Both the position numbers and the translations under genes were made by a program. This document shows, piece after piece, positions 7,001 to 48,889 of a stretch of 64,000 nt of DNA; position 1 is the first letter of the stretch, and each line of letters starts with the position of its first letter. The notes beneath the pieces are model-generated. The model did not search any database. It was not told where the DNA came from and saw only the letters and a list, made by a program, of their open reading frames with translations. Origin of the DNA: Raillietiella orientalis (taxonomy: Eukaryota); assembly GCA_036172245.1 (NCBI GenBank), contig JAYWIR010000044.1, positions 248,001 to 312,000 of the forward strand, written 5' to 3'.

Positions 7001-10000
7001 AGAGAAGTAGATGAAAGCTTCCCTGCATTCGCTTTCGCATTATTTTATGTAACTGCATGTACGTCTCAACGTGTTATTGACGACATCCCAGTCGCATCAG
7101 GTCAGAGGGAAGAGGGGCCACGAGGTTTTGTTTCGATTCGGAGTCAAAGAAGAAGCCATGGCAACCTTATAATTTCCCAGGTTTCGAATGTGGCAGGATA
7201 GCACGACCTCCTTTCCGAGAGGAACAGTGGCGTTCGAAGGAGTTTCGGTGAATTCCGGCTCCTGGATCCTGGATTCTGAAAGATCAAATAGTGTACACAA
7301 GCTGTAACATTCAACGCATCAACGATAAAGCAAAACCGTCTATCAAAATTCATGGACACCGTGAACAGGCGCATCGTACGATGAGCGAAAACGAGTATTC
7401 CCTGGGGGCAGTATCATCCAAGAAAGCGCCGTTAGGGGTAAACTTGGTACTCCACTATCAGGCAGGTATCTTAAGCAGGATGCTACCAACAGGCGATTTC
7501 GTTTTCCTACCAAGTGACGTGGCTGACGTGAGATAACCTCAGATCCACGATCATTTTGTAGACAAAGTTTTCCTATCGCATCGCTTACGCTCCTATGTGA
7601 CCACGGGAACGGATCTTATGGGCAGTGGAAGAGATGTGCGATGATTGATGAGATGGGCGATTCCTTAGCTACTGATCTCCGGGCTTTCCAGCGCTAATGA
7701 ATGGAAAAACAGGACTGCAACGAAATCTGAAACCATTTTGCAATTCCTCGCAATTTCAACACGAGATGACCATGAAGTCTGCAACGTAAAGGAAAACCAC
7801 CGCCTGCCCTTTCGGATACTGAGGAGATGTCGACGAAGAGAGTGCGCTGATGTCATCTGAGGATCCACAACGCGACGTTCAGCAGGGGAAAGAAATACAG
7901 CGACCACGGGGAAAACGCAATGGTGGAAGAATCACTAGGAGAACACGTGGCTGCTGAAAGGTCCACCGAGAGAACGAAAGTCCCAACTAGATGCAGCCTT
8001 CTCATTCCCAAATGCAGAAGAAGCAACCAGCAAAGGCATGAAATTGCGCGCAAGAACTTTCCAGCTTCCCACCTGACAGGAGCAATGGAATGTGCCTGGA
8101 ACGACTTCAGATCGTGATGGAATTTCGAGGAATTAGTCGATGATGGATGGATTGGGACGCTGGATTGCGCGTCTGAAGAAAACTTCCTCCCAAACGCAAG
8201 TTTGAGACAAACTTCGGAAACATTGTGAAGATGTGGTGTTCCGTTTGCAGTGCGCTAATGAAGTTCTCTAGGAGTTGAGACTGGACCAGAATTTGTAAGA
8301 AAAATCGGTCGATTCATGGAAGCTGACCTACTTTCGATTCAGGGGGAGGGGTCATGTGATCAACATCGCCAAATCCACAATCGTGGAATTCGCTGCTGTG
8401 ACATGTTCCAGGCTGACCACAAAGAATTATGAGTGTTTCTCATGGAGGCTCTCGAATACAAGACCTCATTATCAGTTTTCCAGGATGCAACCGCCCTTGG
8501 ATTTACCACTGGATCCACGCCTGCTGAGGTCGTTTGTCGACCCAAGGAATGGCTCTCAACGCAAAAGAGGACACTGAAATTATCCTGACTAACCTGGAAG
8601 GTCAATACTAGATAACGGACATCAATACTAAGATAACGAGTCGAGACTTGATTAGCACAAATAAGTTTGACTTTTCTAAAGCACACAGACTGTACACACG
8701 CATACTGGAAGTCTTCCCTGCTGCAGTGCTGCAGAGAAATACGAAGGTCCTCACGTAGCAAACGCCCGGGAATCTTAATGGAAGCGCTCGGGAGACATCA
8801 CGTTCTGAACGCGCTCTCTGTGCGACGAGGGTGCAAGTAAAAGTGACCGGTCATGGTGCCAAAGTTTCTCTGACACTTTGGCAATTCCTCCTGGGTGCAT
8901 TCAAACGCCTGACACCTCCTAGGAAACGTCATCAAACCAAGGTGGACGTGGCATTACTGGTGCCCTCCGTTCGCTAATGCCTCGTGATTTGCTCTCCTAA
9001 AAGACTCTTTGCCGCCTGCTGACCCACAGCAACTTGAAATTCCTGCACGGCTTTGTGAATGCTCTGAAAAATGAAGTATGAAAAAAAAAAAAAAAAAATG
9101 AGGTTTGCAACGATTCCAAGAAGAGTGACTTTAGTGATAGAAATCACTGGTTCGGACTCGGTATCGTGTCCATGCAAATGGTTCTGTAACCAGGTGTTCC
9201 CATTCTCGATGGGGAATGCGAGTAGGGAATCAGTCGAGAACACAAGGCTGCATCTTTACAGACCCATCAATGCCTCGGTACGGAAAGAGAACGCAGAACC
9301 AAGGTACTGCTAGCCTGAAAGACTCATGCCCAGTCCGGAAGGACGCTACCGTAATTTTTCCTGTTTTGACAGCCATGAGATCTATGGTTCCCAGAAAACT
9401 CCTTATTTGATTATTCTTTACTCACGGAAAGACGACGGCATATATCCGGAGAAGTGAGGAAAACAGGCATTTGTTTTTACACTTGATCAATGGATCCAAG
9501 AGTTCTTGAAATTCCAGAGAGACCAGTAAACAAGTCACAGTGATAAGAGATTAAGATGCTGACGTACTTGCAAGATAGGAAATTGCAAAACAGCGTATGC
9601 ACCTTTCTTATGCTCTATTTTATTTGGCACATTTTTTTTTTTACTCTCATTGTGTTAACGACAACCGTGACGACGACAACTACGTGGTAGACGGAGGTGC
9701 TGCAAACTAGGTACTAGTTCGTAGGTACTCATACGTCTGATGGCATTCTCCCATCGTTACGTCGTACTACCCGGGCATACGAGTTACTGTCTGAGATCAG
9801 ATCCAACCTAACCTCATCTCACTCCCTTCACTTAATCTAAACTAAGCCTACCTAACCTAACTTGGCAATCTACTTTTTCAGAACAACGTTCTCATGGATA
9901 CCCCTTCTAGGGCAATGGGTTATTCTCCAGCAATTGGGTTGTACGCCAATCCATATCAAACTGAGCAAATTTCTTTTTCTTCTCCTAAAATAACTTCTGT

Positions 10001-13000
10001 TCCAGAGGAGCGGTGTTTTCGTACTGTGCGCTATGAGGCAATGGCTGTACTGTAAATTAAGAACTGTTCACGGCTACACCACGCTGAAAGCACCGTCTCT
10101 CGTGCGATCGGCGAAGTTAAGCAGCGTCGGGCCCGGTCAGTACTTGGATAGGCGATCTCCTGGGAACCCCGGGTGCAGTGAGCGCTCTTTTTTTTTAACC
10201 TACATCGTAGGCTTTGTGGTTAAGGCTTCCGCGCGTGGCTCCGTGCGTCGCGGGTTCGAATACTTTGGCAGAAACTGACGCCACTGCGTCGTTGGGTTCC
10301 GAGTTTCTCCTGCAAGATGGCGCTGGTTGGTCGAGACATTCGGGCGTGGCCCCGGTGGTGGGTTAAGCCGGAGTCCCCCGATGAAGGTCGGAACAATGGG
10401 AGTCGACCTTCGGGTCCTTCCAGGAATCAAGGAGTGGGGAGTTCCCCCTCCGGGCGTGCAACGGAGAGCGGACCCCCCACACCGGGGGGATCCCTCCGGT
10501 TTCAAGATGGAGCAGAAGCCTTCACAGGAACCTCTCCAGTTGTTCAAAGGAACGGATCCCCCTATTGCGAATCGTCTCCTCTTCACAGAGTGCAAGGAAG
10601 CAAGCGAGAGCGATCCCCCTGCGGGAAGCTGCAGAGCCCCTTCTGAATTTCGGAAGCGTCCCTTCGGGGTTCTCTTCAGAGTGAACAGGAGCGGTTCCCT
10701 TGCGGGTTCCCTTCGGAGAAGAAATTCCTACAAGCGGATCCTTTCCGGGTTCCCTCCGGAGAAGATGAAATGGAGAGGGCTACCCTCCCTTCCGGGGGAT
10801 TCCCTCCTGTAAAAAAAAAAAAAAAAAAAAATGCTTCCGAGACGACCACATCTTTAAGCGTTTGAGAGGAGATAAATGCAAATACAGATGTATCCAGAGA
10901 TAGCCACAATGTCTGAGGAGTCGTCTTGCATCTCTCTTTCGGCTTGCGCTGAGCCTCTTGGCCTTCCGACCAGAAGTCGGAAGGCCAAGAGGAAGGCTTC
11001 TGGTTAAACATGGAACGCATGCATACTTGCTCAGAGGCACATAAAAACTGGATCCAAGCAAGTGGCTCGTGTCTGCTAGTGGGGAAGATGCTGCAATCTT
11101 CAAGCAGCCAGCAGAAAAAGTTGGCCAGCCACCTACACGGGAAACTGAAAAATTCTTCTTCGAGTGGGAGACTTCGAGATAGCTCTAAGGCGGAGAACGA
11201 AGCGGAATCATGCCCTGGACCGGTATCTTGCCAGAAATTTTTATCAAGCACGCAGGCATTTCTTCCATTTTCGTTCTTTGCTTCGTCTTTGCTTTTGTCT
11301 CTGGAGCGAAGGAGCGCGTTGGCACACTGGAAAATGGATCCTGCCTTGGATGGTGAGTGAAGTAAGGAATCATGAGATTTCAGCAGCAAGCACGACTTGA
11401 AATACCAGAGTCTTCCACAGACTCTGTTTGATGCAATCCGTTTTCTTCAGGTTCCTAAAGCAATCTACCCTTTTCCACCGTTTTCTCAACACAGAGGTGT
11501 GGAAAGCAGTAGAAGGAAGATAGGGGTACCCAGGATGAGCAGCGAAAGTGAAAGAGTCACGTGCGAAAATATTCACTAGGAAAGTGTGAAAGAGATGTAG
11601 GAGATACACGGCTGCAGTCAGTACCGGGTGAACCACACGAATACACACGGAAAACTTTTAATTAACCTTATTCAAAGGCTAAGACCATCTACTCTTTCAG
11701 GAGCCGCGCCCTGTTGAATTTTCGCTGCGATATTGCAGGACCGCATCATCAATCACACGACTCGCACGAACTGACACTCATCTTCCAGTGGCGCTGCTGT
11801 CGGATCATGCAACAAGATCACCGGGGATGCTTCAGCGGTACAGCGACCGATTGAACCTTCTCGTTTCAGGAATGGACGTGAACTTCGGGGAATTCTCCAT
11901 CTCTCAGTGAACTGCAAAGGAAGCGTTCCTCTGTCCGTTTCCTTGGAGGCACTTTCATGACCCGTCATGCCATTGGTCTTCTGGTATCTTGAGGATCGTC
12001 TCCCACCGACTTCGCGCGGATTCTCTCCTGCTAACAGAGATCTCATAGAAAAGCCCTCGCGTTTAGAAAGCTGTTGTTGAGCTGTACAATGTATGTCACT
12101 GGATGTCACTTGAAGTGTCACTGGATTCCTTTCTGGATCCTTCTGCACGTCAGATATGACCAGAAGCGCACGACCATCGAAAGGTGCCTTCCCCGAACAC
12201 GTTATAGGTTTACCGGGCTATACAGCGGAGATTCTTCAGGAACATGAAGGCTGCACCTACCGCAGATTCGATTCGCGGAAAATAGGGTCCCATCCACTGA
12301 AGACACGAGTTCGTTTTTGAGAGGGAACCAAAAAGGTACTCGAACTTCGCCTCGACATCGGAAGAAGAACGGACTGCAGTGGAAAAATTTCTGAAGGACA
12401 TTGTGACCTCCGAAGAATGCAGCATTCTGCGAGGTCCTCATGTTCCGTTTTCATGAATCGCCTTCCAGGACTCCTCGATCACTCCGGACTTCCACCTACC
12501 AAAGTTTCCGCGGAACGCGAGAAATCGTTGCGTGTCAATGCTGCTGGTAGTCCCTGAACGTCGATGTGATGCCCCGAACCCCAGCCACGGGCAGGGCACA
12601 GTGGAAAAACGCACGTGGGAATGGTCTGCTTGCGGCATCTCGCCGGCACAACCACTTGGATAGTTTCTTACCGACGGGTTGGAAGGTCGTATTTGCTGGA
12701 GACGCCAGACCTTTCGGCAGCTGGAAGACCAGCGAGCTGGCGGACGCTGCCACTCGTAATTGTGCGCAGGGACTCCTCTGGTAGAGTGAACTGTTGAGTG
12801 TGTGCCCCCCGACGAACTTGTGGTCCCTCCCTCGTTCGTGAACACCTCTGTGTTCCCACTTCCCTGGAAGCAGGACGTGCTCCTGCTGTTGCATCGGGGT
12901 TTCCATTGCAATCCGCGCTCCCATCTCGTTTCCGGGGGAATTTTCCTTCCCGAACTGTGCAAGGCGAGGAGCAGTGGAATCGCTCCCGCACCTGCTCTTC

Positions 13001-16000: not shown

Positions 16001-19000
16001 TTTTCTTCCTGCCGGGAACCGCAGCGCTTTCGCGCCTTCATCTGGGCATTTTATTCCTTCCAAGAATCGGACTATGAATGGCGGAAGGGACGGTTTGGAG
16101 TTCGATGAGGAGCTTTCGGTCATTTGAACCACACGCGGCGGCGACTTTTCCCCACTTTTTTTCGGCTCTCCGGGAATACGCGCGTTTTTTCCCGAAACTA
16201 ATTCCGTGCCCAAACAGCGTGGAATTCAGCAAGCGTCCGTGGTAATTTAATTGAATCTCTCCGGAGATCATGACTCGGGGATGACGATAAAATATCCTGC
16301 AGCACTGCAGTACTACTCTTAAATATCCCGCACACATCAGGTTTCAGCAAGCACAGGATAATGGCAAAGGCTTTCCAGAGTTCAGGAAGGCAAACGGGCA
16401 GTCGGTGGAACCGCCTGAGGAAAGCAAGGCGCTGGGGCAATGAATCGCCAAATAATTTTGCTCCAGACGCCATCTGCTGCGCCTAGGTTCATCCACTCTT
16501 CACACTCCTCGGGTGCTGCGTTAGACAGGAAGGCATGCATGTCGTGGATGCAGAAGGAACCAGTGCCTTGGAGAAGTCCTCCCTCGCATGGACCAACGAG
16601 ATGAATTCACGTTTGGTGATTGGACGGTGCGCGCGGTCAGGGGAAAAAAGGTTGACGGAGACAGAGAGATGCAGGAGCTAAAACAGACTGAATCACCGTG
16701 GCGACGCGATGGATTTCCTGCTCAGCACCTCCGCGTTCCCCTGAGAAGGTCGCGTGGTAACGCAGCTCGGGAGTGCGCGTGTTGGCACGCACTCTGCCCG
16801 GTTAGCTCCAGCGCATCTCGAATCGCTTGAGTTATCGGAGTGCTTTGGCGTCTGGAGCTATCATGCCATGGGAACAACACTTTCTAATGGCTCTTCGCGT
16901 TCCCTAAATACGCCGTTATCATTCTGCGTCGCTGCTGCTTATTAACACGCGCTAAATGCTATCTGACGAAATATCTGCAATCAGCATCTGTCCAGCATTT
17001 GAATACAAGTGGAGTCGCATCACGCAAAACCTTCGAGCTAGTTATCAGTGCGGATGCATTCCTCCTCGCGGTACAGAGTGCTGTTGTTTATGAAAGGTGC
17101 AGAAAGCAACGCTTCATACCACCGTTTCCCTTGGAATTTTTCCGTCCTCGCCCCAGCGCGCATCCTGCCGATCAATTCACGAGCCGACTCACCTATCCAG
17201 GGAATTAAAGAACAAACTTCTCAGCCACTTTGACAGCTCCCTACTCGTTATCTCTCACCTGTCCCTAGAGGCACCTTGGCGAAAAACAATCCTGCCCCAG
17301 GCACCACTCAAGAGCTTATCCACTATCTTCAAACGAGGACGGTGTCCTCCTTGTCCATTGCACCACAGGTTTTCCAGCGACCGGCCACGGATGGGGTTGA
17401 GTGGTTTTCGCAATGGATGCAAAGAACCCTCAAGGGTCGTTTGCAAGAGTCGCAATAGTTTTAACTGAAGTCCATGCTCAACAGATGGCCACTTGTGCCA
17501 CGGGAATACTGACCTACTGTCGGCAAAGTAGATTCGCATCTTTTACCGTCAGTCTCGCAAGACAATTCTTTTCTTTTGGTTCGACAAGTGCTGAGGGACC
17601 GCTCACCTCGTTAGGGGGCACACGCAAACATTGTCTTTTAACTTTTAACGTCTCTTTAACATTGTCTACGCCACCCAAGGGTGTGTGTGTGACTGTGCAG
17701 TTAGGGGGCAATCTCGTATGGGCCACCCCATGAATCCGATAGAAAGAATTTGTTCCTCCTACGCTTGGCAGGGTACCCCGAAAGGCTCCTTGATTCCTGA
17801 AAGGACCCTAGAGTTCAACTTCCAATCCTGATCAGTCAACAGGAGCATCTGGCTCGTTCCCACCAGTGCCGCACCCGAAGTCAACCAGCAGCGTCATCTT
17901 ACGGGAAGACTCGAAACCCACGACGTACCACCCATTTCTCGCAGTTTATCATCTAAGTGGGGATTCAACCCGTAACGTTTGGTACCCCGTCGCGAAGACG
18001 GCAGCCAGACGGCCTCCAGCATAGACGTGCAGCTACGGACAATTCTTCGCTACTTCCTTTGCTACCCTACTACTTGATAGTTCTTAAAACTCTTGCAATG
18101 AGGAACTGATCGCTCTTCTGGATTCCTGCTATACTCCAAGATCCCCTCGGCAGGGTGCTCTCAAAGGAGCAGCAGCAGTCTGGAGTTACTTTGAGCTGTT
18201 CCAATTCTTTCATCGTCTGCTGTGCACCCCACCGGGAAGCCATCGTGTTTGTTCTCCCACCCCTCATCGCTGGATACTCCTTTCATCCGCCATTTGCCTC
18301 CACTGGACCATCCTATTCTATGATCTGCGGTGCCTGAAGACTGCGTAAGAAGGCTGCTCGAGGTGCGCAGAAATCTCCCATAATTCTGGTGGTCTCTTCG
18401 GATTCTCGAGGGGCACAGTCAGGCGCAGCTGCCAAGTCACGGTCGCGCATCCCTCAGCCTCAGCTATGCCCAAAACCACCCGTCATAGTGCAGGAAGTTG
18501 AACCTCGGATGCCTACTCCTTTCAACACCTCCGTCTTGAAGCCGATCTTTGCCAGCAGACTGAAGTTTCAAGCAGATGCCCTCCCGCTTCAAGGAGCACT
18601 CCGAAAGGGGCTTCAGCTACCGGGAGTGTTCTCCGGCTTGCAAGCAGCCCAAGAACCAGCTCCTACGAGAATTCAGGAAGGACTGTCGGGGAAGCCGGCG
18701 GGATTCTCACGCGATTGGAACATCCGAACCCAAGAAGCAACAAAAAAGACGTGCTCTACTTTCGCACCTTCAAGCACTCTTCGTCCGCACCTTCGCTTCG
18801 AGATACAAGGTCCGAGAAGTCTGTTTGAAAAGCTGTGAGAAAGGAAAGAGAAGGACCATCGCGATGCGATCCGCAACCGAGGTCCAGCGGGGCGACTTAT
18901 GACGAGGCAACTTACCCGTACAGCATCTGCGCTTGTGAGAGTCATGCAGACAAGGCTCACCACACTCACCAATATACGAAGATCCACCGGGATAGAAGTG

Positions 19001-32700: not shown

Positions 32701-34842
32701 GAGCTTCCAGTGATGGACGGAGTCTCTGGGAATTTCCCTGGAGAGCTTCGAGATCTCGTGCCTCCTGGTCGAAGCCTACGTCTTCCCTCTTCGGTACCAG
32801 CAGACCGTCATCTTGCTGGTGCTCTGGGCACTCCTTTGAAATGACTGTGCCTCAGCAGTTTCCACTGGGAGTGCCTAGTGGAAACTGCAAGCAGCAGGCT
32901 GCGATAGGAGGGCATCGTTGAAGCGCATGTTTCCACGGTGACTCACCTTCGGAGAGATGTCCACGTCTCCAGAATTGCAAGTGGCTCACCGGTCGACATT
33001 CTGGAGAGCCAGTTGCAATCACCATCGCCTCCACCCGAAAGGAGATAAAATCACTCATTGCGTGACGTGGGCTTGGAATGCTTGCGGGTCGACTGAGAAG
33101 AAACCGGCGAGAGCACCTCTTCCGTCCCTTCCCTGCCCGACACAGACCCTCAGGGGCAGGGTCGGGGACGAATACAAAAGAACTAACTGGTGGGAAGCGG
33201 TAGCGGCGACTGACCGCATTCGATGGGTCTTCTGGAACCCGCGTGGGATGCAGGCGCCGTCCTCCTTGACTGCGTCATCCTTCGGAAGAGATTCGAGGTC
33301 ACTTTCCTCATAACTGCGTGGTCGAGGCGCGTGACCCTTCCCGCTGGCGCACCTCCTCGGCGTCCTCGGAACGCTACGGTCTTCCTGACACAGCGCAGGA
33401 TCAGGGGATAGGGGAAGAGAGCGGAAGGTCGCCCCGCATCAAGCGACGCCGTTACGGCGCTTCCCGGGCTCTTCCACACGCTCCGAGGGTCGTCGCATCC
33501 CACCAGCAGGCTGTGAGGAATTTCCCGCGGCCTCCCTTCGTCTAAAGACGCCGCTGCAGGCTGCGCGGGAAGAACCAGTGCGCAGACGGCGAAGACTCTT
33601 CACACTGCCGTCCGAGGGGCAGTACGGAGATGTCCAGCAAGAGGGATCACCGTCTCCGGCGGCGGAGCCCACAGGCATTCCGCCCAGCGAAGCGGTCCTT
33701 CAGCACGGGCACGCGGTGTCGCCTCTTAGCCTGCTGGCCCGTTCCTCCACAGACCCGCCTGCCTCGTCGCTCTCGCTGCGAGGTTCCCACCCTACCGTGT
33801 GACCAGCCACCGTTTCTCCCGTTGGAAGGGCGATGATGCTGAGGCTAAGGGCTGGTAATGCCTTAGTCCAATCCGTCCTTTTCCACTCCGTCCAGGAAGA
33901 GTGCTCTCAGGTTGCGCATGGAACGTGTCCACTCCACAGTCAAATCAAAGTTCTATCTCCTCCTCGTTGGCCTCACACTTCGTCACAGATGCTCTGCAGA
34001 GGTCCGTGAGGGGCTTCCGACTCTGTGCAAGAGTAACCAAAGTCGAAACTCCTGGACTGTTGTCCTGGAGACTGCTCTTTTCGGCCGCGCCCTGATCCCT
34101 AGCTTGCACGGCTCTGTTGAGCGAGGATGGTTTCTGCTGCCTCCCCCGGCAAAAACGCAATCCCCTGCGCAGGAGAACGGTTCAGGGAGCAACAGTGGAG
34201 GATTTCGTATGATCATTCAGGACGCTCTGAAAGTAATCCTTCATCAACGATCAATCCAGGTTTCTGATCCTCCTTTTCCTTTTCATCGCTGTTGCCATTA
34301 GGAATTTCCTTTTCCTGGAAAGGTCGAGGACTGTTCACTCTTCATCGAGTAGTTCACCTTTTGGACATAAATCCATGACAGCGTTCCGTTCTAGTTTCCT
34401 ATGGAACGCAGTCATCTTCCTCTATTTTTGACGGTTGCGCACCATGATCCACTTAAACGTCATGTCTTTAAGGATCAGCGTTCTCAGGATAATATACCAA
34501 GATGTTTTTCCATTTTGTTCAAGAGAGTCCTTGCTGCTCATTTCCAGAACTGCAACACCAACTTCATGCAAGAGAAAATACTTGAGCAGAACCCCCCCCC
34601 CCCCCCCCAAAAAAAAAAAAAAAACACTTCAATTTGATGATTAGTGGAAGTCGGATGTCATCCTCAAATTCAACAAAATTCAGTGCCTTCTCTGTCGAGC
34701 ATCTGACAAATCTTGTGCCACACTTTCTTTCAGCCCGTCAGCTGCGTCGGGAGCTCCCTGGGAGATGGTGCGTGCGGCATGCAGTGCTCCAAGGCAGAAG
34801 AGAAACGCAAGATCGCACGCTGGAGTTAAGGCCTTGACGTTC

Positions 34843-35515
34843 TAGTTGACTCTCTTCGGCCAAGGAAAGAGGACACCCGGAGTGTGCAACACCATCCGAG
34901 GACCCTGCCCTAGCATCGAAGGTTACCCTTCCATGGTGCCGTGGCAGCCTCTTTACGAGGGTTGCTTTCCGCCTGTCCTGGACGAGCCCACGGGGGGTCG
35001 CTAAGGGATTCTTCGCACGCCGCTCGGAGTGCGACTTCTGCCTTCAGCCGACACGACCGCTCCATTTGCTTTGCTCTCGTTTTCCCCAGAGTGAACTGAA
35101 GAGGCCACCTCATGCGCCGGACTGAGGAAACAGTCTAGGTCAGTGGCCGAGACGGAAGTCTGCCAGCCATCCATCGGTGAGGTCAACAGGATGGCGCAAA
35201 TTGTGGAGGAAGAGCTTGGCGGCTAATCCTGTTGACGTGTTTCCGAATGGCGATGCCTGGAAGCGATGGCAACGATGATTCGATAGCTGCTGTTCCCAGA
35301 AGCATGCCAACCACTTCGAAGGAACAGGGAACATTGGAAATCGTCTCGGACGCTCAGAGGTAAGAAATTCTTGGGAAGACTCAAGCTCGCTGGAGAATCG
35401 GGAAGTTTGTCCAAAAGCCTTTGCTGGTGAGATTTTGGAACCGACTCTGTTTTTCTCGGGTGTTCATGCGAACATTTACCGATCGCTGAACGCTGATGCA
35501 TCGGGAATTACGACC
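34843..35515 (+). repeat. Left arm of a 673-bp near-perfect inverted repeat
   Basis: Reverse complement of 37361-38033 with no indels and about 3 substitutions seen. Identical or near-identical peptides appear on opposite strands in the ORF track. Confidence 0.97.
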
Positions 35516-37360
35516 GCAGCACGTGGGCTCCAATGGAAGACCACTAGTCTGGGATAAGAAAAAACGTCCTGGTGGATCCACCTCCCAGATGATGCAGGAA
35601 GGCTCACAAAACGACCGTCGCACCGATCTGGCTTCAGGGAGCGGAAAAAAAAAAAAGCACAAACTGGTCTCCTAGCAACCTCAGCGGCGGTTCGTTCATC
35701 CGATAAACGAAGGAACTCGGGGAATCGAAGAATGCTTTCCCGAAAAAGCAGTGCCCTGGAGAGCTTGTGGTGGTAACTCGCTTCGGCGCTCCGACAACCT
35801 TAGCACAACGCTCTTGACTTTCTGCAGCGCTTCTTCTTCGGAGGTGTACTGAAGAAGAGCGCTGTCTCATCGTAACCATGTTTTATCTGCTCCATAGTGA
35901 CAGCCTGCCATGTGCTAGAAGCAAGTGCTCGGCGAAGAGAGGCCACCAGCATGGCAGCAGCCCTCATGATGGTGTCTCATCTGCCAGCAAAAGTCGCCAG
36001 GGAGACCGCCACCGTCCGGAGCCGCTTCCACATGGGAAGGAACGTCTTTAATCAAAGACCCCTGTTCCCACTTTTCGAACTTTTTAAATTTATTTCCCTT
36101 TGTTCCTAACTTTTTGGAACCAGCGTGGTCAACCCGAATGAACTTTTTTTTTTTGTCATTTCTTGTTTTTAAGGGGGATTCTTCTTCCCCTCTTCGTTGT
36201 AGTTTGTTTTGTTTTTTCAAAATAAAACGTCCCAGCGTAAGCGAGTAAAAACCAAAAAAGCATGAAACGTTTGCGCCGGTCGTAAGCATCCCGACAGATT
36301 AAATTATGACGAGCGGTGGGGTGTTTGACCTCGGAAATGCTGATTGCGTTCCTTGAGAGCTCGTATTTAAACAGGCGCAATGTGTTCGGAACACGCGTCG
36401 GCAATGGCACCTACGGGCAACCGCATCCTCTCCAATCCATCACAGAACAAACACCACAGTGATGCTGGTTATCTGCGATGCTGCGCGCTGGCGCGTTCTG
36501 CAGCCCTTTTCGTTTGGGCTGCCTGCGTCCCTTTCCTTCCACCTCCGTCCCGGAGGTGTTACAGGGGTGAGCGACGTGGTGTAGAAGGACTCTGCTACCG
36601 TTCTGGAGCACGGGGGCAACTCAGGGTTCGCAACCGTCCTCCGGGATTTGCTGGTTTCTGGTGCACCATCAGCGCTTCGCATCTTTATTTGCCGATTCGC
36701 CTCCCGTCCTCAGCACGCTCTCTTCTGGCTTGGAAGTGAAGTGAGAAGCGGGTAGTGAGATGCCAAAGTGCTACTACATCTCATGGTTTGGGGGGAATGA
36801 AGATGGTGTTGAACACAGTTCGGCCACGTGATCACTGAGAGTCGAGAAGATGATTTACATCGATGAATTCTTGTTGCGATGAATTCCACCGATGATCCTT
36901 TTATGGATTGTCACCCTTCATGGAAACTGGATCGCCGAAATGGCGCACAGGAAACCATCCGACAAAATTCACATTTCGTTCCAGGAGGTTCGCTGTTCTC
37001 CCTTCCTCTTGTGAGGCACGGCGTTCCTTTAAGATGTCTTTGCTCAAGTTGAGGAACTGATCTGTACCCGAAGACAGAGCACCCATAAAAGCGAGCGCGC
37101 CCCTCCTCGACGAAGCACGAAAAACTGCTTCCCACGCGGAATGGGTTTCAAGATTTGCCATCTTGGGGAGCATCTGCTGCTAGAACATTTCCTTCTCTCT
37201 TCCTCATCCTCATGGGAGGATGGTTAACTCCTGGATTCGTTGAACTGCGGTCCTAGAACCTGGTAGGGCATCGAGGGATGCCCAATGCGCATGAAATGAC
37301 CTCTCCAGTTAATTCAGGGGAAAACGAGAGCAAGCAGTCGGGTCGCAGCCCACGCGCTGA

Positions 37361-38033
37361 GGTCGTAATTCCCGATGCATCAGCGTTCAGCGATCGGTAA
37401 ATGTTCGCATGAACACCCGAGAAAAACAGAGTCGGTTCCAAAATCTCACCAGCAAAGGCTTTTGGACAAACTTCCCGATTCTCCAGCGAGCTTGAGTCTT
37501 CCCAAGAATTTCTTACCTCTGAGCGTCCGAGACGATTTCCAATGTTCCCTGTTCCTTCGAAGTGGTTGGCATGCTTCTGGGAACAGCAGCTATCGAATCA
37601 TCGTTGCCATCGCTTCCAGGCATCGCCATTCGGAAACACGTCAACAGGATTAGCCGCCAAGCTCTTCCTCCACAATTTGCGCCATCCTGTTGACCTCACC
37701 GATGGATGGCTGGCAGACTTCCGTCTCGGCCACTGACCTAGACTGTTTCCTCAGTCCGGCGCATGAGGTGGCCTCTTCAGTTCACTCTGGGGAAAACGAG
37801 AGCAAAGCAAATGGAGCGGTCGTGTCTGCTGAAGGCAGAAGTCGCACTCCGAGCGGCGTGCGAAGAATCCCTCAGCGACCCCCCGTGGGCTCGTCCAGGA
37901 CAGGCGGAAAGCAACCCTCGTAAAGAGGCTGCCACGGCACCATGGAAGGGTAACCTTCGATGCTAGGGCAGGGTCCTCGGATGGTGTTGCGCACTCCGGG
38001 TGTCCTCTTTCCTTGGCCGAAGAGAGTCAACTA
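37361..38033 (-). repeat. Right arm of a 673-bp near-perfect inverted repeat
   Basis: Reverse complement of 34843-35515; the spacer is 35516-37360. Confidence 0.97.
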
Positions 38034-38429
38034 TGAAGAGGCCGATGTATGGCCTTAACTCGAGCGTGCGATTGCAAGGAAGCCATGCAAGAGTTTTTTT
38101 TCCTTCTGTTCTTTTAGAAAACGTGGAAAATTTAGGTTGTGAGGATGCGAGTTTTACGTGCGGAACCATTTCTTGTTTTGTTTCCCCTGTCGGAGAAGCA
38201 AATTTACTATCTTTCCGTAGGCTGCAGCTTCTCTCGCTGCTTCATTGCTTTCCTGACATAATGATGGAGCTGCCACGTGCTCCATGGATTCGAGAGAGAC
38301 TTAAATTTTAATTCTTCGCCATTATGGCACTCAGCGTCCCAGCAGAAGAAAATTCCGCCTAACTCTACGGAACGGAGATGAGGATTTTTCAGCCGGCAAA
38401 GAGGAGCCATTTCAGTTTGAGAATTTCGG

Positions 38430-39139: not shown

Positions 39140-39530
39140 TGTTTACCTTCCTCCCGGAGATGTAAAAAGGAGCAATAAGATCCCCCTGCGAGAAGCCTTT
39201 TGGGTGATGCAGAGACCGTGGGTCCTCTTGAAGGCTTGTGCACCTCGCGTCGGGACGCGCACAATTGCTCCAATCAGCCAGCGCCCTTCGGAGAAATTGG
39301 GAAGCCTCGCTTAGAGATTTTCCTCAGAGAAGTAACAGGAGTGGATCCTTTCCGAGTTCCTTTCGAAGAAGAACTGAGGGGCGTCCTTTTCCGGGTGGTC
39401 TTCCCAGAGATGACCAGCGCGATGGTTCCTTCAGGGTCCCCCTACCAAACGTAAGAGAAACGGAGTGTTTCCTTCGGAGCCCTCCCCAGTTCATGGGGTG
39501 GTCCTTTCCCGAGGTGATCCCCTCTAACAT
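39140..39530 (+). repeat. Diverged copy of the repeat-rich 3' body of the 10203-10831 element
   Basis: Shares gatccccctgcg.gaagc and aacaggag.gg.tcc.tt.cg.gttcc.ttcg.agaagaa with 10610-10790. Confidence 0.65.
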
Positions 39531-41973: not shown

Positions 41974-42597
41974 TTTTCCTCCAGGCAGGGCAAAAAAAAA
42001 AACGTGGACGTGTGCCTCGACTCCACGACTTTCCATCCGCCAGCTATGCTTCCACATTTGCAGAAGAGACTTTAAGGTTCATCGGAGCACCCATCCTGAA
42101 ACGCTTGATTTCAGCAGGAGTGTCGTAGCTGGGAATCATCGGTTGGGTTTTGTGATGAAGTCGATTCAGTTTTGCCGCATGCATCTAAAAATGTAAGAAA
42201 GACGTATCTTTCCGTCATTAGCTGTCGGTGAGTCCTCAACAGTGATTTTGTCAATGTACAATGCTTGTACTCCAGTGATAAGCAAAGAGTTACGCGATAC
42301 CTTGCGCACGAAGCTGATTCCAGAACGGTCAATGTCCCTTAATCCAACCAACCACACACTATCAATCCCGTTAATGCCCTTAAGGCTCAATCCTGCCTTC
42401 AATTGCCATCCTAATCACCAACCAACGAAGGATTGCGCTCATAGTCACCAGTTGCTTCCATATAAACGACAGACTACGAACAGTCTTCGATCTACCTCTG
42501 TGACCATCCTATTTCCCATAACTCACTAGAAAATTCAAAATTACCGACAGAACTGTAACGACCACGTTTACAACCTCCTACGTCTGCCATCAGTCTG

Positions 42598-42615
42598 TCG
42601 CTTCTCGGCTAAGAT
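42598..42615 (+). ncRNA. U2: Possible U2 snRNA 5' fragment with internal deletion
   Basis: TCGCTTCTCGGC+TAAGAT corresponds to about U2 nt 2-13 and 22-27, i.e. loss of CTTTCGGC between two TCGGC repeats. Confidence 0.45.
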
Positions 42616-42619
42616 TGGA

Positions 42620-43010
42620 GTGGGAGACGAGACGTCACAAACCAGGTACAGACACTCTCGTCTTTACGCAACCAGACATGACGCGATAGCGACCAGAATG
42701 AGGACAGCGGAGACAGAAAAGGATTGCTGGAAAACCAGGGGTTTCGAATCAGCACGTCCTCTTCGTCCAGTTTTCGCCCTACGGAAGGATAATAAAAGGG
42801 AACTAGTATGTTTCGTGTTCATTGAAAAACTGGAAAACGCCTTCGATGCAGCCAGAATGAAGGAAAGATGATTGCAGGGATGTTGCCTTCCGACTCTCCG
42901 GGAGAGGAAGTGATGTCAGATGGGATATCATCTTAGCCTCGGTCCTCTTGGAACTTGGGATCTAAGAAACTATGCAACTATTCGGGAATTGAGGTTCTCG
43001 TGAAGGTGTG
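42620..43010 (+). mobile_element. Decayed RTE-clade RT fragments
   Basis: RGF...PVFALRKDNKRELVCFVFIEKLENAFD resembles AVFALR...KELHCVFVDLEKAYD, and CNYSGIEVL resembles CSNYRGI.L. An opposite-strand RLYGSNW (LYGSETW-like) lies at 42448-42468. Confidence 0.55.
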
Positions 43011-43149
43011 TACCCAAGAGGAGGCAACATATGGTCAGAGCATGTATCGGATACACTCGCAACAGCTACTGCCGGCTGCAACATCAGCCACGTGGTGCGG
43101 ATGTCCTGCAAGTGCAGGAACAACGAGACGAGGTACAGCAGCTCTTTGA

Positions 43150-43950
43150 CGAGGAGAAGGACTCCTGCGGCCTAGACGACTAAGCACGGTCCACGTAGTA
43201 AACACCCTTGGTTCAACGAGACCAGGGCTTCTATTCCCAAAGCAGGAGGATGTGAAGATTGAGAAGTCCTCCAAGAGCAGGAAGATTTCGAACCTCAGGA
43301 ATTTATTCATTGAGAATGGGTGCTTGCAAAGCAAGCCATGTCGGATGGCAGTGGTGGAGGACTCAGCACAGTACAGAGGATACTTCGTCCGCGAAGACTC
43401 CAGGCTGAAGCGCTGGGCGGGAGAATGAAAATGGAAAGAACTTCTTCCGTTGACAAAGTCCAAGAGGCGGAGGCTCTGTAGCTCGCGCTCAAACTCAAGC
43501 AACACTGATCATGACCTTGATCAGTGCAGCTCATTGAGTCTGCAGTCCACCGAAGAGACTTTGTCCTGTACTCCCCCAGTGGTATTTTTGTGTGACCCCG
43601 ACCAAAGAGCGTCGACGCTTTTCGGGGGAGGCACCCACTTAAATCACAGCCACGGATGCTTCCCTCTCACGCAGCCTGGTGTAGATAATCAGATTATAGT
43701 CAGCATACTTTGTTCCATAGATTTCGCATCAGAGTGCTGGAACTCTCGCTGTTACCTTTCCTCGTAGCCGAGTCTTTCGTCAGCATCTTGGATTGCGTGC
43801 GGAAAAGAGGTTGCACGATACTGCATTCATCCCTGTTCTCAGCGATGCCAGCCAGCAGCCACCGCTTCTGGGAACTGTTGCACGATCTAAAACAGGCTAC
43901 CCACGTGTATGAGCGTCTATGCGATGCTTTCCAAGTTTCGAACCTTCGTT
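43150..43950 (+). mobile_element. Decayed L2-type LINE ORF2
   Basis: PRSKHPWFNE, QSTEETL (HSTETAL), VDNQIIVSIL (VDH.ILL) and HRFRIRV (RFGI.G) occur in the expected order. Confidence 0.55.
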
Positions 43951-45337
43951 TAGCGTACAATTGCTGAGCAGAAACTTGAATTCCCGACTCGGTTCTAGAG
44001 GAGTCCAAAGTCATCTAGAATTTTACAACGGGCAGGCAGGCTCTAAGCACAATGCTGGAGCATTTGGACCGTCTGTGATTTTCGTATCTCGACAGTAGAG
44101 CAAAAACGAACCTGAATGCAAGAGAATCTAGTAGAGCTCTTTAGAAAATCCATCAGCTTAATCGAATCCTTAAGTTCACCAAGAACCAAGCTGGATAAAT
44201 TTTTAGGGCTCCTCAACATGTTCCTTCTTTACAAAATCCTATGAAACAAACGTTCTGTGCCTTCCCTTCTCGCATGTTGATTCTTTCAATCGCCTACTCA
44301 GAAAACCACGGTTTGAGTGGATCGATGCGGTCACTGTGCCACACCACGAATCTGGGGTCACGCAGTGACAGTCTTGCAGAGTCCAAGGCTCCAGAAATCG
44401 AAAGAGGATTTTCCAGCGTAGCGCTGTTGCCTGTTTTCTATTTCAATCGTTTCAAAGTTGCTTTTCCTGAAGCATCATCTATTAGCATCTGCCTTTCGTT
44501 TGCTCCACATTCCATGGGGAGTCCAGGAGAATTCCTTTTTTGGCTTTCCTGAAAGAATAAGACACCATCTGTCGCCGTACTTGCCAAGGACACTCACAGA
44601 GTAGCGCTTTTGAAAGAAACTGTTGCATAACGGACGTCAACCTGCTCGTGCCGTAGCCATGGTTACCAGAAACGCACTTCGCTTCTTGATTTTTCTGTGG
44701 AGGGAACAGAAAGAAATGCGAGTTTTATAAAGAGTTTTGTGGACTAGGGGCATGTGAAGGCCTTACCATTATCCATCATCCATCTATCAGTTGCTCTCTC
44801 ATAAACTTGATCCTTTGTCGCCTGGATGGTTGAAGTCAAACGTTAGCATGGTGCGCCCTAGGTACTGCCTGCCGCAGTGGTCCCCGAAGTGGTGAGTTGG
44901 CCAACCTTAACTGGTGCCCTGCTTAGGGATATTGACAATTTGTGGTAACGAACTGGTACATGCATCTGATCAGACATCTTCAGGGGATCATTTCCGTGCA
45001 CTTGGAATTAAGCTAATTCCAAAATGAGTAGAGGCGGCTTCCGCAATTGCGATTTCTTCTTTCTTTTTCGTTTTCATACTTAACCACTCTCATAGGTTCA
45101 AGAGCCAGTTCGTCCGGCTATCCTCCTCCTGGGATGCCAAGAACGGAGATGTCCTGAGCGAGCCAGGAATTTCCCAGAAGGCGCGCGAACCTACGATCGA
45201 AAGAACGGAGGAACCGCATAGAATAAGGGGACCAGTATCTTTTCGACCTTCATGACCTGTGCAGGAAAACAATTCTTCTCTCTTGCACAGTGCCAGACCT
45301 AAAGGGAAGCCAGAGTCCGTCATATGGATGAGCAGTA

Positions 45338-45890
45338 GGAAGATTTCGAACCTCAGTGATCAATTCATTGAGAACGGGTGCTTGCAAATCAAGCCACGTC
45401 CGACGGCAGTGGTGGAGGACTCAGCACATCACGATACAGAGGGTGTTTCGTCCGCGAAGACTCCAGGATTCAGCGCTGAGCGGTAGAATGAAAGTGGAAA
45501 AAACTTCTTCCGTTGACAAGGAAGTCCAAGAGGAGGAGGCTCTGTAGCTCGCGCTCAAACATTCAACATTTCAGGAGTGACCACTTCTCAGCCCCATTCA
45601 GCTGCGGCCATGAACCGGTCGAGCAGTACGTCTGTTCCCTGGATGCACAGGAGAGACAGCCACTAACAGCGATTTGACACGTGAGACGGCGTCTCGTTGC
45701 GAAGACGACGTCTTCTGCAGCTGCGAGCCTACTTGCAATGTGAGATCTGTATTTCTGACCGGGCGAACTATGACCTGCGAAGTGAGGATCACTCTGTAAT
45801 CCTTAGCACCTACTCACCTGACCTGAGAAAGTGCCTGGATCTTCCGTCTAATGCTACGCATGACATGGTTGTTGCATGGTCCCTGTAATT
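45338..45890 (+). mobile_element. Second L2-type piece; 45338-45560 is a direct repeat of 43280-43494
   Basis: Clear DNA repeat ggaagatttcgaacctcag...ggctctgtagctcgcgctcaaac. Downstream RAYLQ...NYDLRSED resembles the L2 C-terminal P.YL....LRS motif. Confidence 0.6.
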
Positions 45891-46453
45891 TTCTATAAGG
45901 GGTTGGTATCCCTAACGGACGCTCGACGCGAGTTTTCTATTCACGGAGTGCACGGAATGTATTGTCCTCCGTCCGGTTGTCCGTCCTCAAACATGGACGT
46001 GCATCTTGGGTCCCCATGAGTCGTGGCTCTTGTTTCTCGGACGGCCACAGGCTTCGTGCGTTCACGCTTAAGATTCGTGAAGATCTGCATCATCAGGCAG
46101 TGTGGCGGTTTGCCGGACGAGGGAGCGAGCAAGAGGACGTTTCTACCGCTGGGTGCTCAGAAGTAAGAAGCTGAGGGACATGGAGCCTTAGCAAATGTCC
46201 GCGCCATAAACGTGCTCGCCTCGCAAGGGCGATTCGTGACTCCCCCCCCCCCCCCTCGGAAGTGTCGCCTTCAACACTGACTTCACGACTGAGTAGCTGA
46301 AGACACTCTTTTAACAATCTCTTCGTCTAGCTGCCAATTATAATGCAGTCAGAGCCCAGGAAGGAATCGTAAGGAACTATGGTCATCTGCTATGCTTTGA
46401 TTTCGGGATATCCCCTTGGCTTGCAAGCGTCTTCGCGGGGATGGCCCAGCCGT

Positions 46454-46772
46454 CCAATAGATATCCCGACTAAATCGAATGACCGAAGATACCATTAACC
46501 TCCTCATCTTATCCGCATATCTTCAGGGGATGCCACACCGTCTTATTACTCCATTTTTCGGATCCCATGAACTAAGTGCTCCAATAATAAGAACATGGAC
46601 GTCTACTCTCATTCCTTTTAGGGTTGAGATTGCGCCAGTGGTTAATATTTCTGTTCTTTATCCTTTCTGGCAGTGTTAAGCGCATCCTCACCATTTTCAA
46701 ATGGGCATGCAGCATCAAACACCGCTGTTCTATTTTCTTTTTGGAGCACTAGGTCTGGTTTATGTAGGAAAT
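46454..46772 (-). mobile_element. 5'-truncated Utopia (NeSL group) retrotransposon, RLE domain
   Basis: Reads KPDLVLQKENRTAVFDAACPFENGEDALNTARKDKEQKY*PLAQS, then after a frameshift LKGMRVDVHVLIIGALSSWDPKNGVIRRCGIP*RYADKMRRLMVSSVIRFSRDIYW. The PD..D, PFENG, K..KY, GxLxSWDP and SRDIY motifs are all present. This frame is not in the ORF track. Confidence 0.9.
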
Positions 46773-46807
46773 CCACGCTTTGATCTTAGCCGAAAGGCCG
46801 AGAAGCG
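46773..46807 (-). ncRNA. U2: U2 snRNA 5' fragment (about nt 3-37) abutting the Utopia tail
   Basis: Minus strand CGCTTCTCGGCCTTTCGGCTAAGATCAAAGCGTGG versus U2 ATCGCTTCTCGGCCTTWTGGCTAAGATCAAAGTGTAG. Confidence 0.9.
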
Positions 46808-48889
46808 GAAAGCTATAGTAAAATAGCCAAGATCAGATTGTTTTCTAACCTGGAGGGCATTTAACATTGGAAAATCCCCTTTGCCTCGTTCGTTGCCCCA
46901 CGACCCAGAGATGGCACGGAACAGCTCAAGTCCGAGTGGTTTTTCCAGGTATCCGTTGGCTTCGCCCGTTTTCAAGTGTGGGACGCCTTGTTCGCTGACG
47001 CAGCAAGTAGTCGCCATTGCCAGCCTGGGGGATTGCGGTAGAAAAGCGTGGCGTGGGTTAGCCGAGAGACGAGCACGAAGACGTGCAGTTTTCACGAGAG
47101 CATCATCCAGTGTTGGTCATCCACAAATGGGGATTCCGAGCGCGTAAGGTTGGCTGCGAGAAGATGGAGTGCATCGCTTCCAGCCCTGACTTCCCTGGAA
47201 TCTTGCCCATCGGGCTTTACGAAGTTGACCGCATTATCACGTACGGAAGCAAAAATTCTGCATCACTTATTCCGCGTTTGTGATGAAACTCCATCGAACA
47301 AGAGAAACCACTTCTGTCGCCCATTCCTTTCCATCGAGAACGTCAGAACCCCACCTATTACACACCGTCTCCCATGCTAATCGGTCCCCACTTATTGACG
47401 CCCTCAGAAAACGAGGAGCATTTCAAGAGTCCAATGAGGACTGCGGACACTCCCACCATGAAAGCTCCTTCCTTCTCTTGAGCATTGTTCTCTGCAGCCC
47501 TCCTCCGGCATTTAGCAATTTCCACCTCAAACCGATAATCCAGAGTCCGAATTGAGAGTGTCTGTTAGTATCGATTTGCCTCCCCCTGTGCCGGGAGAGG
47601 TGAACTCGATTAGTCGGCGCTTTGTTTGTCTGCAGAAGTGTACATGACAAGAGACGGCTGCTCCTCAACCTTCTGAATGCGTGTTTTCTTTGGGGGTGTC
47701 TGATGTTCCGGAAACGAGTGCCGTCGCTTTCCTATTGTCTGCGCGGATTTCGGTTTCATTCCTCGTATTGGCTTTCTTCCCTGAGCGCTTTTCTTGCAGC
47801 ACCCTACGAACGTTCTTTGAGAGGGTATTCCAGCTGAAGCCATCATTCTCTAAAAAGAGGAGGGAGCGGAGCAAGAGACCTTCCCAACAGTGGGTGCGGA
47901 ATGCACCATAGGGTTGAGGCTAGGAGGAAACTCTTGTAGAATCTTCATGCTGCTCCGAATCTCGTGGTTGCATACTGGTGCCGCTGGTGCTGCAGGCGGA
48001 ACATTCCTGATCGATGTCTCTCATCTCACCATTGCCCAAGAGATCATTGATCTCTCTCTCAGCCGTGGATTGAGGGTGCAGTTCCGAGTTGAATACGAGT
48101 GCGATGACCCTGGCTGCGAGATGGTCTTTTGCTCGAGGAATGTTTTAATGCGAGACCTGGGTGGACACGGAAGACGTGAATTTCCGCCTTACCTGTCAGC
48201 GACTGGCAGCTCCTTCTCAATGAGACACCTTAGAAAAGAAGGCCACAACCAGTAGGGCCACCGATTTTCAAGAAACCGAATCGAGAACGGGAAAGGCATC
48301 TTTAGAGCAAGCAGCTTCCCAAATCTTCCGTCGGGTGTCTCCGAGTGCCCGCGAGGCAATTCAAGGGAAAACCAAGAGGAATCTATTGAAGATTTGGATT
48401 TGCGCCCAGAAGCAAATCTTCTTAAACTCCAGCTTACCCTCATGAAGAGAAAAGAAGTTTCTTCTTACGGAACGACACCGTGTCGAGGATGCGCCCGGGT
48501 GGGATGACGATCCAAAGTTTGTGAACAGAGAGAGCTTGTACGAGCTGATGGACCCATCACCATTGGTGCGAGGCAGGCAGGTTTTTGATGAGGCAGAAAC
48601 GGGGCTCCTAGACGTGCATAAGGATTACTTAGCAGCAGTTTCTGGATGATTTCCCAGAATTTCAAGTGTCGTGGCTTCCGAACTGAAGAAGCTGAAAATT
48701 CCCACAATATAGACGACTCGTCTCCACACATGACGGAACCTCATCCAGAGCTGCTGCTGGAATCCATATGCTTATCTAGATCCCTGCTCGTAGAAGGAAA
48801 AAGGAATCGCAAAGAGCAACGAGACTAAGATTTTCTCCGTCTTCACCCCTAGTCCTGCATATCTTCTTTTGTCGGTATGAGGTTATGAT

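Follow-up and report, generated by a model that had tools for sequence, protein, structure and literature searches.

Within the window analysed here, a whole stretch of 64,000 nucleotides (nt) at positions 248,001 to 312,000 of contig JAYWIR010000044.1 from Raillietiella orientalis, lie three dead, 5'-truncated copies of Utopia-type retrotransposons, elements of the NeSL clade that bear a restriction-like endonuclease (RLE) and lack long terminal repeats (non-LTR), and in each of the three the 5' end is fused to the first ~30 nt of U2, a small nuclear RNA (snRNA). The parts of these copies, which we call A, B and C, are located as follows.

46809-46778, minus strand: U2 head of copy A (U2 nt 1 to ~31), by Rfam U2 and pattern match
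46764-46645, minus strand: N-terminal part of the copy A RLE, HKPDLV...FDAACPFENGEDAL...QKY and then TAA, by translation and tblastn
46651-46451, minus strand: C-terminal part of the copy A RLE, EILTTG...LIIGALSSWDPKNG...MRRLMVSSVIRFSRDIYWT, in another frame with one in-frame TGA, by translation, phmmer and tblastn
6409-6438, plus strand: U2 head of copy B (nt 1 to ~30), decayed, by pattern and Rfam
6439-6959, plus strand: decayed RLE tail of copy B, by tblastn and translation (open frame 6447-6959)
42598-42620, plus strand: U2 head of copy C, with an 8-nt internal deletion (TCGCTTCTCGG^CTAAGAT), by blastn-short
42621-43087 (end approximate), plus strand: decayed tail of copy C, GDET..RHDAIATRM..RPVFAL..LGTWD.., by tblastn and frame reading

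The head of copy A matches the Rfam U2 family with 25 bits (E=0.036, model positions 1-30, in a 4-kb scan), and a 27-nt U2 pattern fits it at 27 of 27 positions, a match expected 0.00 times by chance (100 shuffles). U2 homology ends at ...GGCTAAGATCAAAG, and the RLE tail follows directly after ...AAGATCAAAG, with 15-18 nt between the end of U2 and the K codon of HKPDLV. The N-terminal part of the tail translates (46764-46645, minus strand) as HKPDLVLQKENRTAVFDAACPFENGEDALNTARKDKEQKY and is 38-49% identical to Utopia proteins, with a joint E down to 1e-18 in tblastn; the C-terminal part, which reads ...VHVLIIGALSSWDPKNGVIRRCGIPxRYADKMRRLMVSSVIRFSRDIYWT (46651-46451), is 45-56% identical to such proteins by the same method. 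Both parts contribute to an RLE signature of KPD...D..E...K.KY followed by GALSSWDP...SRDIY, and the copy bears three lesions: the TAA after QKY, one frameshift between the tblastn segments, and the in-frame TGA. When the 97 residues of the C-terminal part, with X at the stop, were used as a phmmer query against 1.84 billion representative sequences, 117 matches were obtained at E<=1e-3, the top three at 55-59% identity, and no Pfam family matched the RLE pieces at E<=10. The relatives named among the 18 of 117 matches that were looked up come from turtles (Macrochelys, Chelonia, Mauremys), the dragonfly Ladona fulva, beetles, a Drosophila (Drosophila teissieri), ants and locusts; the host table for Utopia in PMC4640811 includes turtles, Ladona fulva, beetles, a Drosophila and ants, and locusts are not in it. 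Judged by these matches, the tail of copy A is the PD..D/ExK RLE tail of an R2/NeSL-type (Utopia) non-LTR retrotransposon. The original prediction for this locus, made from the sequence alone, had been of a U2 5' end fused to a Utopia RLE tail, and the Rfam match, the complete 27-nt pattern and the 117 phmmer matches confirm it; the fusion lies on the minus strand, and its gap is the 15-18 nt given above and not the 11 nt first proposed.

The other two copies repeat this design in older form, since the perfect head of copy A marks it as the youngest of the three. Copy B keeps 24 of the 27 pattern positions and 16.3 bits against Rfam U2, with a core identical to that of copy A at 23 of 23 positions; its tail reads ENxRVSGTDPTLRPNSALEKGNSLILLNVACPVRNGEEA...LMSVLSNCS, the C-terminal part being decayed, and is found by the Utopia proteins P0031 (E=9.6e-7) and P0019 (E=1.5e-4) in tblastn. 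Copies A and B are 61.5% identical over 174 nt and 41% identical over 34 amino acids. The head of copy C was recovered by blastn-short as two pieces, each matching at 11/11 positions and with starts 6 nt from one another, and its tail begins within the CCHC finger, ~60 codons 5' of RPVFAL, so that the tblastn matches (P0031 residues 678-819, E=1.1e-4; P0003, E=4.4e-4) include the ..DET..RHDA.. finger.

Heads and tails occur together without exception in the window: each of the three U2 heads has an RLE tail, and each of the three RLE tails has a U2 head. A blastn-short search with the 32-nt head placed four of the 200 matches listed in the three loci, the other 196 being 10 nt or shorter, and tblastn, run with 10 Utopia proteins, detected the RLE in these three places only, with no remnant of a reverse transcriptase anywhere in the 64 kb. 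On the U2 side the three junctions agree. The heads start at U2 nt 1-3 and stop at ~nt 30 (...AAGATCAA / AAGATCAG / AAGATTGG, pattern ...AAGATCA(A/G)), which is 8 nt short of the published insertion site, where the 3' flank runs from nt 39. On the element side, the tail starts ~6 codons before KPD in copy A, ~12 before RPN in copy B and ~60 before RPV in copy C. Three different element starts point to three separate junction or integration events, not to copies of one master, and a single family resembling a short interspersed element (SINE) is thereby ruled out for A, B and C.

Two gene models among the Utopia proteins carry repeated tails of their own. P0002 (turtle, 1107 amino acids) contains four Utopia RLE-tail repeats and P0003 (dragonfly, 867 amino acids) contains three, and the extra units start 13-18 residues before RPD, near the starts of copies A and B; those genomes may accordingly contain truncated Utopia tails in tandem, and truncation may perhaps favour a particular point.

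As had been predicted for copy A, no U2 3' half follows the tail. Nowhere in the window does a U2 match exceed the Rfam gathering cut-off, and no U2 3' half was found at E<=10 in the intervals 44500-48500, 5000-8500, 42000-44500, 45950-46460 and 6960-7560. A profile of U2 nt 39-188 made from five comparison loci (described below) likewise found none in the window when searched with nhmmer --max, the best match having E=4.4 at an unrelated place. For a shorter remainder, U2 nt 39-52 with at most 4 mismatches, one match lies downstream of A, which is no more than chance would give (a match also occurs in 68 of 200 shuffles). Three candidates for U2 remnants were rejected: TCAGTTCTTAGCAAC at 6924 lies within the reading frame of copy B (codons SVLSN); AAGATCAAATAGTGTAC at 7280, when reverse-complemented, proves to be the polypyrimidine tract with the 3' splice site that belongs to the exon at 7142-7261 of a lachesin-like gene; and TCTGTTCCC at 45634, together with short U2-like strings after A and C, was seen by eye only and is not significant.

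What a Utopia insertion looks like at its 3' side can be seen in a comparison set of 10 loci coding Utopia tails, taken from metagenome contigs. In five of them (L002, L005, L006, L007 and L009) U2 resumes from TCTGTTCTTATCAG ~410-1030 nt after the RLE, scoring 51-113 bits; the other five have only 121-678 nt of sequence past the RLE. Since U2 appears in half of this set, a U2 remainder after copy A would be readily visible. No U2 head occurs at any of the 10 loci. The last Utopia bases in L007 (~3590-3610, AAAGTGAGCTAA) and L009 (~1200-1216, AAAGTGAGTAGA) resemble U2 nt 28-38, just before the flank that begins at nt 39, and U2 nt 1-11 (ATCGCTTCTCG) itself resembles U2 nt 38-48 (ATCTGTTCTTA). 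In L005 (1800-3858) a Utopia-disrupted U2 is followed by intact U1, transfer RNA (tRNA) and U4 genes within 2 kb, a compact cluster serving as a Utopia target.

A scan for U2 heads in a prokaryote genome collection returned 54 loci on eukaryotic contigs mis-binned into metagenome-assembled genomes (MAGs), representing 37 distinct contexts. In 18 of these the head is followed by the strict nt 39-50 motif, and seven continue, by reading, as U2 with a variant stem; two lie at contig ends, four are interrupted (L015, L020, L027, L041), and six come from one organism with an odd U2. Copies A and B share the loop variant CCTTTCGG, with TC at two positions where the 37 contexts of other organisms have TT (AT in one contig), and this is probably, on sequence comparison, the species' own U2 variant. 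Two of the interrupted contexts, L015 (2414-2529, minus strand, and 3169-3287, plus strand) and L027, show a head that passes at ~nt 40 into its own stem-loop I in reverse-complement form (TTAGCCGAAAGCC); close by on the same contig stand a 5S ribosomal RNA (rRNA) gene and a Utopia-like reverse transcriptase.

The organism with the odd U2 is represented by eukaryotic contigs binned as a Rubritalea MAG, in which the branch-site-pairing region of U2 is AAGTAGAAATAACTGTTC, and the stretches concerned are L042 2460-2570, L045 2470-2650 and L055 2497-3065. L055 contains a full U2 gene at 2497-2686 (150.8 bits), and at 2947, as in L014 (reverse strand, 2490-2570), there is a U2 gene with the same upstream sequence into which a full-length Utopia enters after ~nt 66. 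In L042 and L045 a full-length Utopia is instead preceded by 2-4 serial U2 5' segments. Those of L045 all begin, behind a small number of additional bases, at U2 nt 2 (TCGCTTC); of the L042 segments, the head adjacent to the element starts CTCGCTTC and the one preceding it starts within U2. None of these segments has the upstream sequence of the same organism's U2 genes in L055 and L014, and because they are promoter-less, the U2 leaders were apparently reverse-transcribed along with Utopia RNA. It thus appears that a U2 leader can be part of the copied Utopia RNA, in a different lineage and at a different U2 site.

The three copies of the window lie in both orientations, A on the minus strand and B and C on the plus strand, and their 5' and 3' flanks are not alignable: none of six pairwise local alignments is clearly above shuffles, the highest being one 5' pair at 15.0 against a shuffle maximum of 14.5. 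The neighbourhood of copy B contains the following features.

7142-7261, 2109-2507, 1904-2059 and 1468-1857, minus strand: lachesin-like exons, by homology to crustacean and insect lachesins
10066-10300, plus strand: 5S rRNA gene (87 bits, T9 terminator), with a tRNA-like stretch within 100 nt that has a B-box-like GGTTCGAAT

A 159-residue open frame at 2031-2507 (minus strand) is an immunoglobulin-domain exon by Pfam, 50-55% identical to lachesin-like proteins of crabs, mantis shrimp, mayflies and copepods. These exons identify the host as an arthropod, and they place copy B, in antisense orientation, within an intron of 4.6 kb (2508-7141) of this lachesin-like gene. With no U2 remainder in the window, and with the same design recurring at two dispersed places of which one is intronic, the proposal that copy A is not an ordinary disrupted U2 locus is supported. 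A broken U2 gene is probably not what the copies represent, and quite possibly they record the dispersal, through RNA, of Utopia fragments capped by U2.

The explanation that we tentatively favour, giving it somewhat less than an even chance, is that the copies are retrocopies of U2-promoter-driven transcripts from 5'-truncated Utopia insertions. A 5'-truncated Utopia copy would integrate into a real U2 gene and so create the junction; the U2 promoter would transcribe the resulting short chimera, giving an RNA that begins at U2 nt 1; the Utopia reverse transcriptase would copy this chimera in trans from the 3' end of the element, which would leave the U2 3' half uncopied; and the complementary DNA (cDNA) would enter sites other than U2, the lineage being one whose choice of target is relaxed. 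Short RNAs would be copied to their 5' end more often than 5-kb RNAs, and for that reason every tail would keep its head and no copy bearing a reverse transcriptase would be left. Such a process would account for the head-tail pairing, the missing remainder, the lack of long copies with a reverse transcriptase, and the genic setting, and its products would be U2-capped processed copies from several source loci and not one SINE-like family. The serial U2 leaders of L042 and L045 offer a precedent for it, and the start of the heads at U2 nt 1-3 agrees with it, as do the 28S leaders, SIDEs and U12-extended form of R2 described below.

Several observations weigh against this account. It is drawn from one 64-kb window, and a head fused directly to an RLE tail occurs in none of the 37 U2-head contexts of other organisms. 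No chimera junction occurs twice, as it would if any one U2-capped RNA had been amplified. When the 40 nt before each copy were compared with the 2 kb after it, no exact repeat of at least 9 nt appeared that would mark a target-site duplication; no poly(A) was found in the sequence downstream of A, B and C, no 3' untranslated region (UTR) or other 3' region shared among them was found, and their 3' ends could not be defined. The 5S rRNA gene and tRNA-like stretch lie 3.6 kb from copy B, whose neighbourhood could be an old small-RNA gene cluster, and copies A and B both have the 7-mer AAAGGGG upstream, at -73/-74, which weakly suggests a promoter element common to the two. Utopia families of wasps show strict U2 specificity, relaxed targeting having been described for ants and reptiles (PMC4640811), and relaxed targeting in the present lineage is an assumption. 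As to the dispersed U2-headed retroposon of the original prediction, its interpretation is partly supported: U2-headed copies do recur, dispersed and in both orientations, but not as one amplifying family, for the three element junctions, the ~61% identity of A and B, and the absence of a common 3' region, poly(A) and target-site duplication speak against a single U2-headed retroposon family.

Other explanations attribute the heads to different sources. In one, which we regard as unlikely, ordinary target-primed reverse transcription (TPRT) with 5' truncation took place into pre-existing dispersed U2 5' fragments, either 3'-truncated U2 retropseudogenes or a U2-headed repeat, so that the head is target flank and only a few U2 bases are left downstream. 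A constant U2 end at ~nt 30, near the nt 38/39 site, combined with a variable element start is what independent truncated integrations would leave, the dispersed and promoter-less setting fits as well, and mammals have 3'-truncated U2 retropseudogenes of about this length (PMC4494074). Yet none of the three heads in the window is without a tail, so that no empty U2 5' fragment is present there, nothing common downstream of the three copies marks a U2-headed repeat, the U2 nt 39-52 remainder was not found, and the literature consulted documents no arthropod pool of U2 5' fragments. A second possibility, that 5'-truncated elements entered three former U2 genes of an old small-RNA cluster whose 3' halves were lost later or at integration, seems improbable to us. 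Because the nick sets the 3' junction in TPRT, the element should be followed by U2 from nt 39, as it is in all five comparison loci that show U2; at the young copy A a remainder of 150 nt would readily be detected, yet there is none in 64 kb; three such losses would be needed, one of them at copy A; and copy B lies inside an intron of a lachesin-like gene. The upstream regions are, moreover, not alignable, and the invariants T5/C6/C8 of the insect proximal sequence element A (PSEA; PMC1761439) are by eye unmatched upstream of A, a weak point given that the host is probably not an insect. Speaking for former U2 genes are the presence of three heads within 40 kb, the 5S rRNA gene and tRNA-like stretch nearby, the L005 precedent for U2, U1, tRNA and U4 clustering within 2 kb, the AAAGGGG at -73/-74 in A and B, and the systematic loss of the U2 5' 38 nt on integration inferred in Phytophthora (PMC4640811).

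The heads might also have been acquired during reverse transcription itself, if the Utopia enzyme jumped from broken Utopia RNA to U2 snRNA or a U2-leader fragment and copied this to its 5' end, in the manner of U6-L1 chimeras or of the U12 extension on R2. The R2 enzyme jumps templates both in vitro and in vivo, and a U12 5' extension of 156 nt, as well as tRNA extensions, is known on R2 (PMC3414825); the serial U2 segments with extra bases in L045 and L042 resemble repeated jumps, and the heads start at U2 nt 1-3. We nevertheless think this has little likelihood, since each of three independent jumps would have had to reach U2 at ~nt 30, the very place in its DNA target that Utopia cuts, and since jumps usually start at the 3' end of the acceptor and would give near-full-length small RNAs (compare PMC4494074). 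A cryptic 5' splice site at U2 nt 30/31 (CAA|GUGUAG), which would yield spliced co-transcripts, was also considered.

Retrocopying of U2-driven chimeras, the reading favoured above, places the copies between several known systems. To Utopia they are linked by a C-terminal CCHC and PD..D/ExK RLE and by a U2 junction near the published site. Among 65 Utopia families, 44 have U2 from nt 39 at the 3' flank and 11 have U2 at the 5' flank (PMC4640811); RLE homology and a U2 5' flank are present in the copies described here (the latter in 3/3), whereas the U2 nt 39 3' flank is absent, U2 ends at ~nt 30 and not at 38, and the copies lie outside U2 genes. The crocodilian SINEU-3 begins with 32 bp of U2 (PMC4494074) and is similar in that a U2 5' segment of ~32 nt heads a dispersed non-autonomous retro-element, which raises in both cases the matter of how a head that has no internal promoter is transcribed. 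SINEU families, which apparently use Tx1 elements, have one head-body junction per family, a poly(A) and no remnant coding for a long interspersed element (LINE) (PMC4494074); the present copies, in contrast, have different junctions, no poly(A), and, in place of a short non-coding body, an RLE coding remnant of the presumed partner.

The closest parallels are found with R2. This element forms SIDEs, short internally deleted non-autonomous copies, and in Drosophila ambigua a subfamily extended by U12 snRNA (PMC3414825). The likeness is that of short derivatives of an RLE element with a 5' leader and a 3' end, along with which an snRNA 5' segment may travel. R2 SIDEs keep their 5' ribozyme, stay in the ribosomal DNA and have one deletion junction per family, and the U12 extension is a 156-nt piece gained in one jump on a full-length R2 (PMC3414825); in our window a leader and a 3' part are present in 3/3 copies, and no junction was seen twice. 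By analogy, the U2-capped copies would work most like an R2 SIDE whose leader comes from the target gene. R2 RNA also carries up to 36 nt of 28S (PMC3774820), a target-gene leader on the co-transcribed RNA of an RLE element that is copied into cDNA; there it pairs with that same target, so that no additional copy can be seen, whereas here the leader is visible and the copies lie outside U2 genes.

Chimeric retrocopies that template switching produces from small RNAs and LINEs, U6-L1 among them, have a near-full-length snRNA, poly(A) and L1-type duplications. They resemble the U2-capped copies in being dispersed fusions of an snRNA 5' part to a LINE 3' part; they differ in that only U2 nt 1 to ~30 is present here, ending at the DNA target site of the element. 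Site-specific RLE retrotransposons are thought to survive only within multicopy target genes, and if U2-capped copies routinely reach non-U2 sites, then the U2 promoter and leader would be part of the Utopia intermediate, as 28S is for R2. A LINE that inserts in an snRNA gene could then lead naturally to a SINE with an snRNA head, which bears on how SINEU arose and is transcribed; and dispersed U2 5' fragments could serve as markers of past Utopia activity. A further-reaching and more doubtful proposal, which we rate as possible, is that in this arthropod U2 genes with a 5'-truncated Utopia act as factories, their strong external promoter making short RNAs that begin at U2 nt 1 and end in a Utopia 3' end, and that the Utopia enzyme pastes these genome-wide. 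An snRNA-capped non-autonomous class would in that case be recognised whose origin (the promoter of the target gene), partner LINE and birth mechanism can all be read from sequence, and the origin and transcription of U2-headed SINEs such as SINEU would be explained as well. If, on the other hand, the heads are plain target flanks, the copies would be ordinary truncated insertions of some age, odd only in that their U2 3' halves are missing. The portions of PMC4640811 and PMC4494074 consulted contain no description of dispersed U2-capped Utopia fragments, although the junctions in S1 Fig of PMC4640811 may show some.

Past copy C there is a repeat, R230, which occurs twice.

43276-43549, plus strand: R230, ~190 nt past the end of copy C, possibly its 3' UTR end (uncertain)
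45334-45610, plus strand: copy D, the second of R230, perhaps without a head and more strongly truncated (uncertain)

From 43276 onward R230 is 87% identical to 45334-45560, the local alignment reaching 43549 and 45610, respectively, and there is no third copy within the window. R230 may be the conserved 3' UTR end of the Utopia lineage of copy C, or an unrelated repeat. An SSWDAKNG match at 45124 (E=0.28) had suggested D as a further Utopia tail, and this was rejected, as the sequence upstream of R230 there is not like copy C (the score of 54 compares with an average of 52 for shuffles).

The window as a whole has 52% G+C, a CpG observed/expected ratio of 0.90 and a TpA ratio of 0.48, and among its 148 open frames of ~115 amino acids or more the immunoglobulin exon is the only one above a Pfam family's own cut-off. 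Repeats at 10287-10434 and 10638-10768 recur in diverged form at 17786-17925 and 39284-39413. An inverted repeat pair at 34812-35529 and 37347-38072, 726 bp long and 97.7% identical with ~1.8 kb between the arms, could be the termini of a DNA transposon or could have arisen by a recent inverted duplication.

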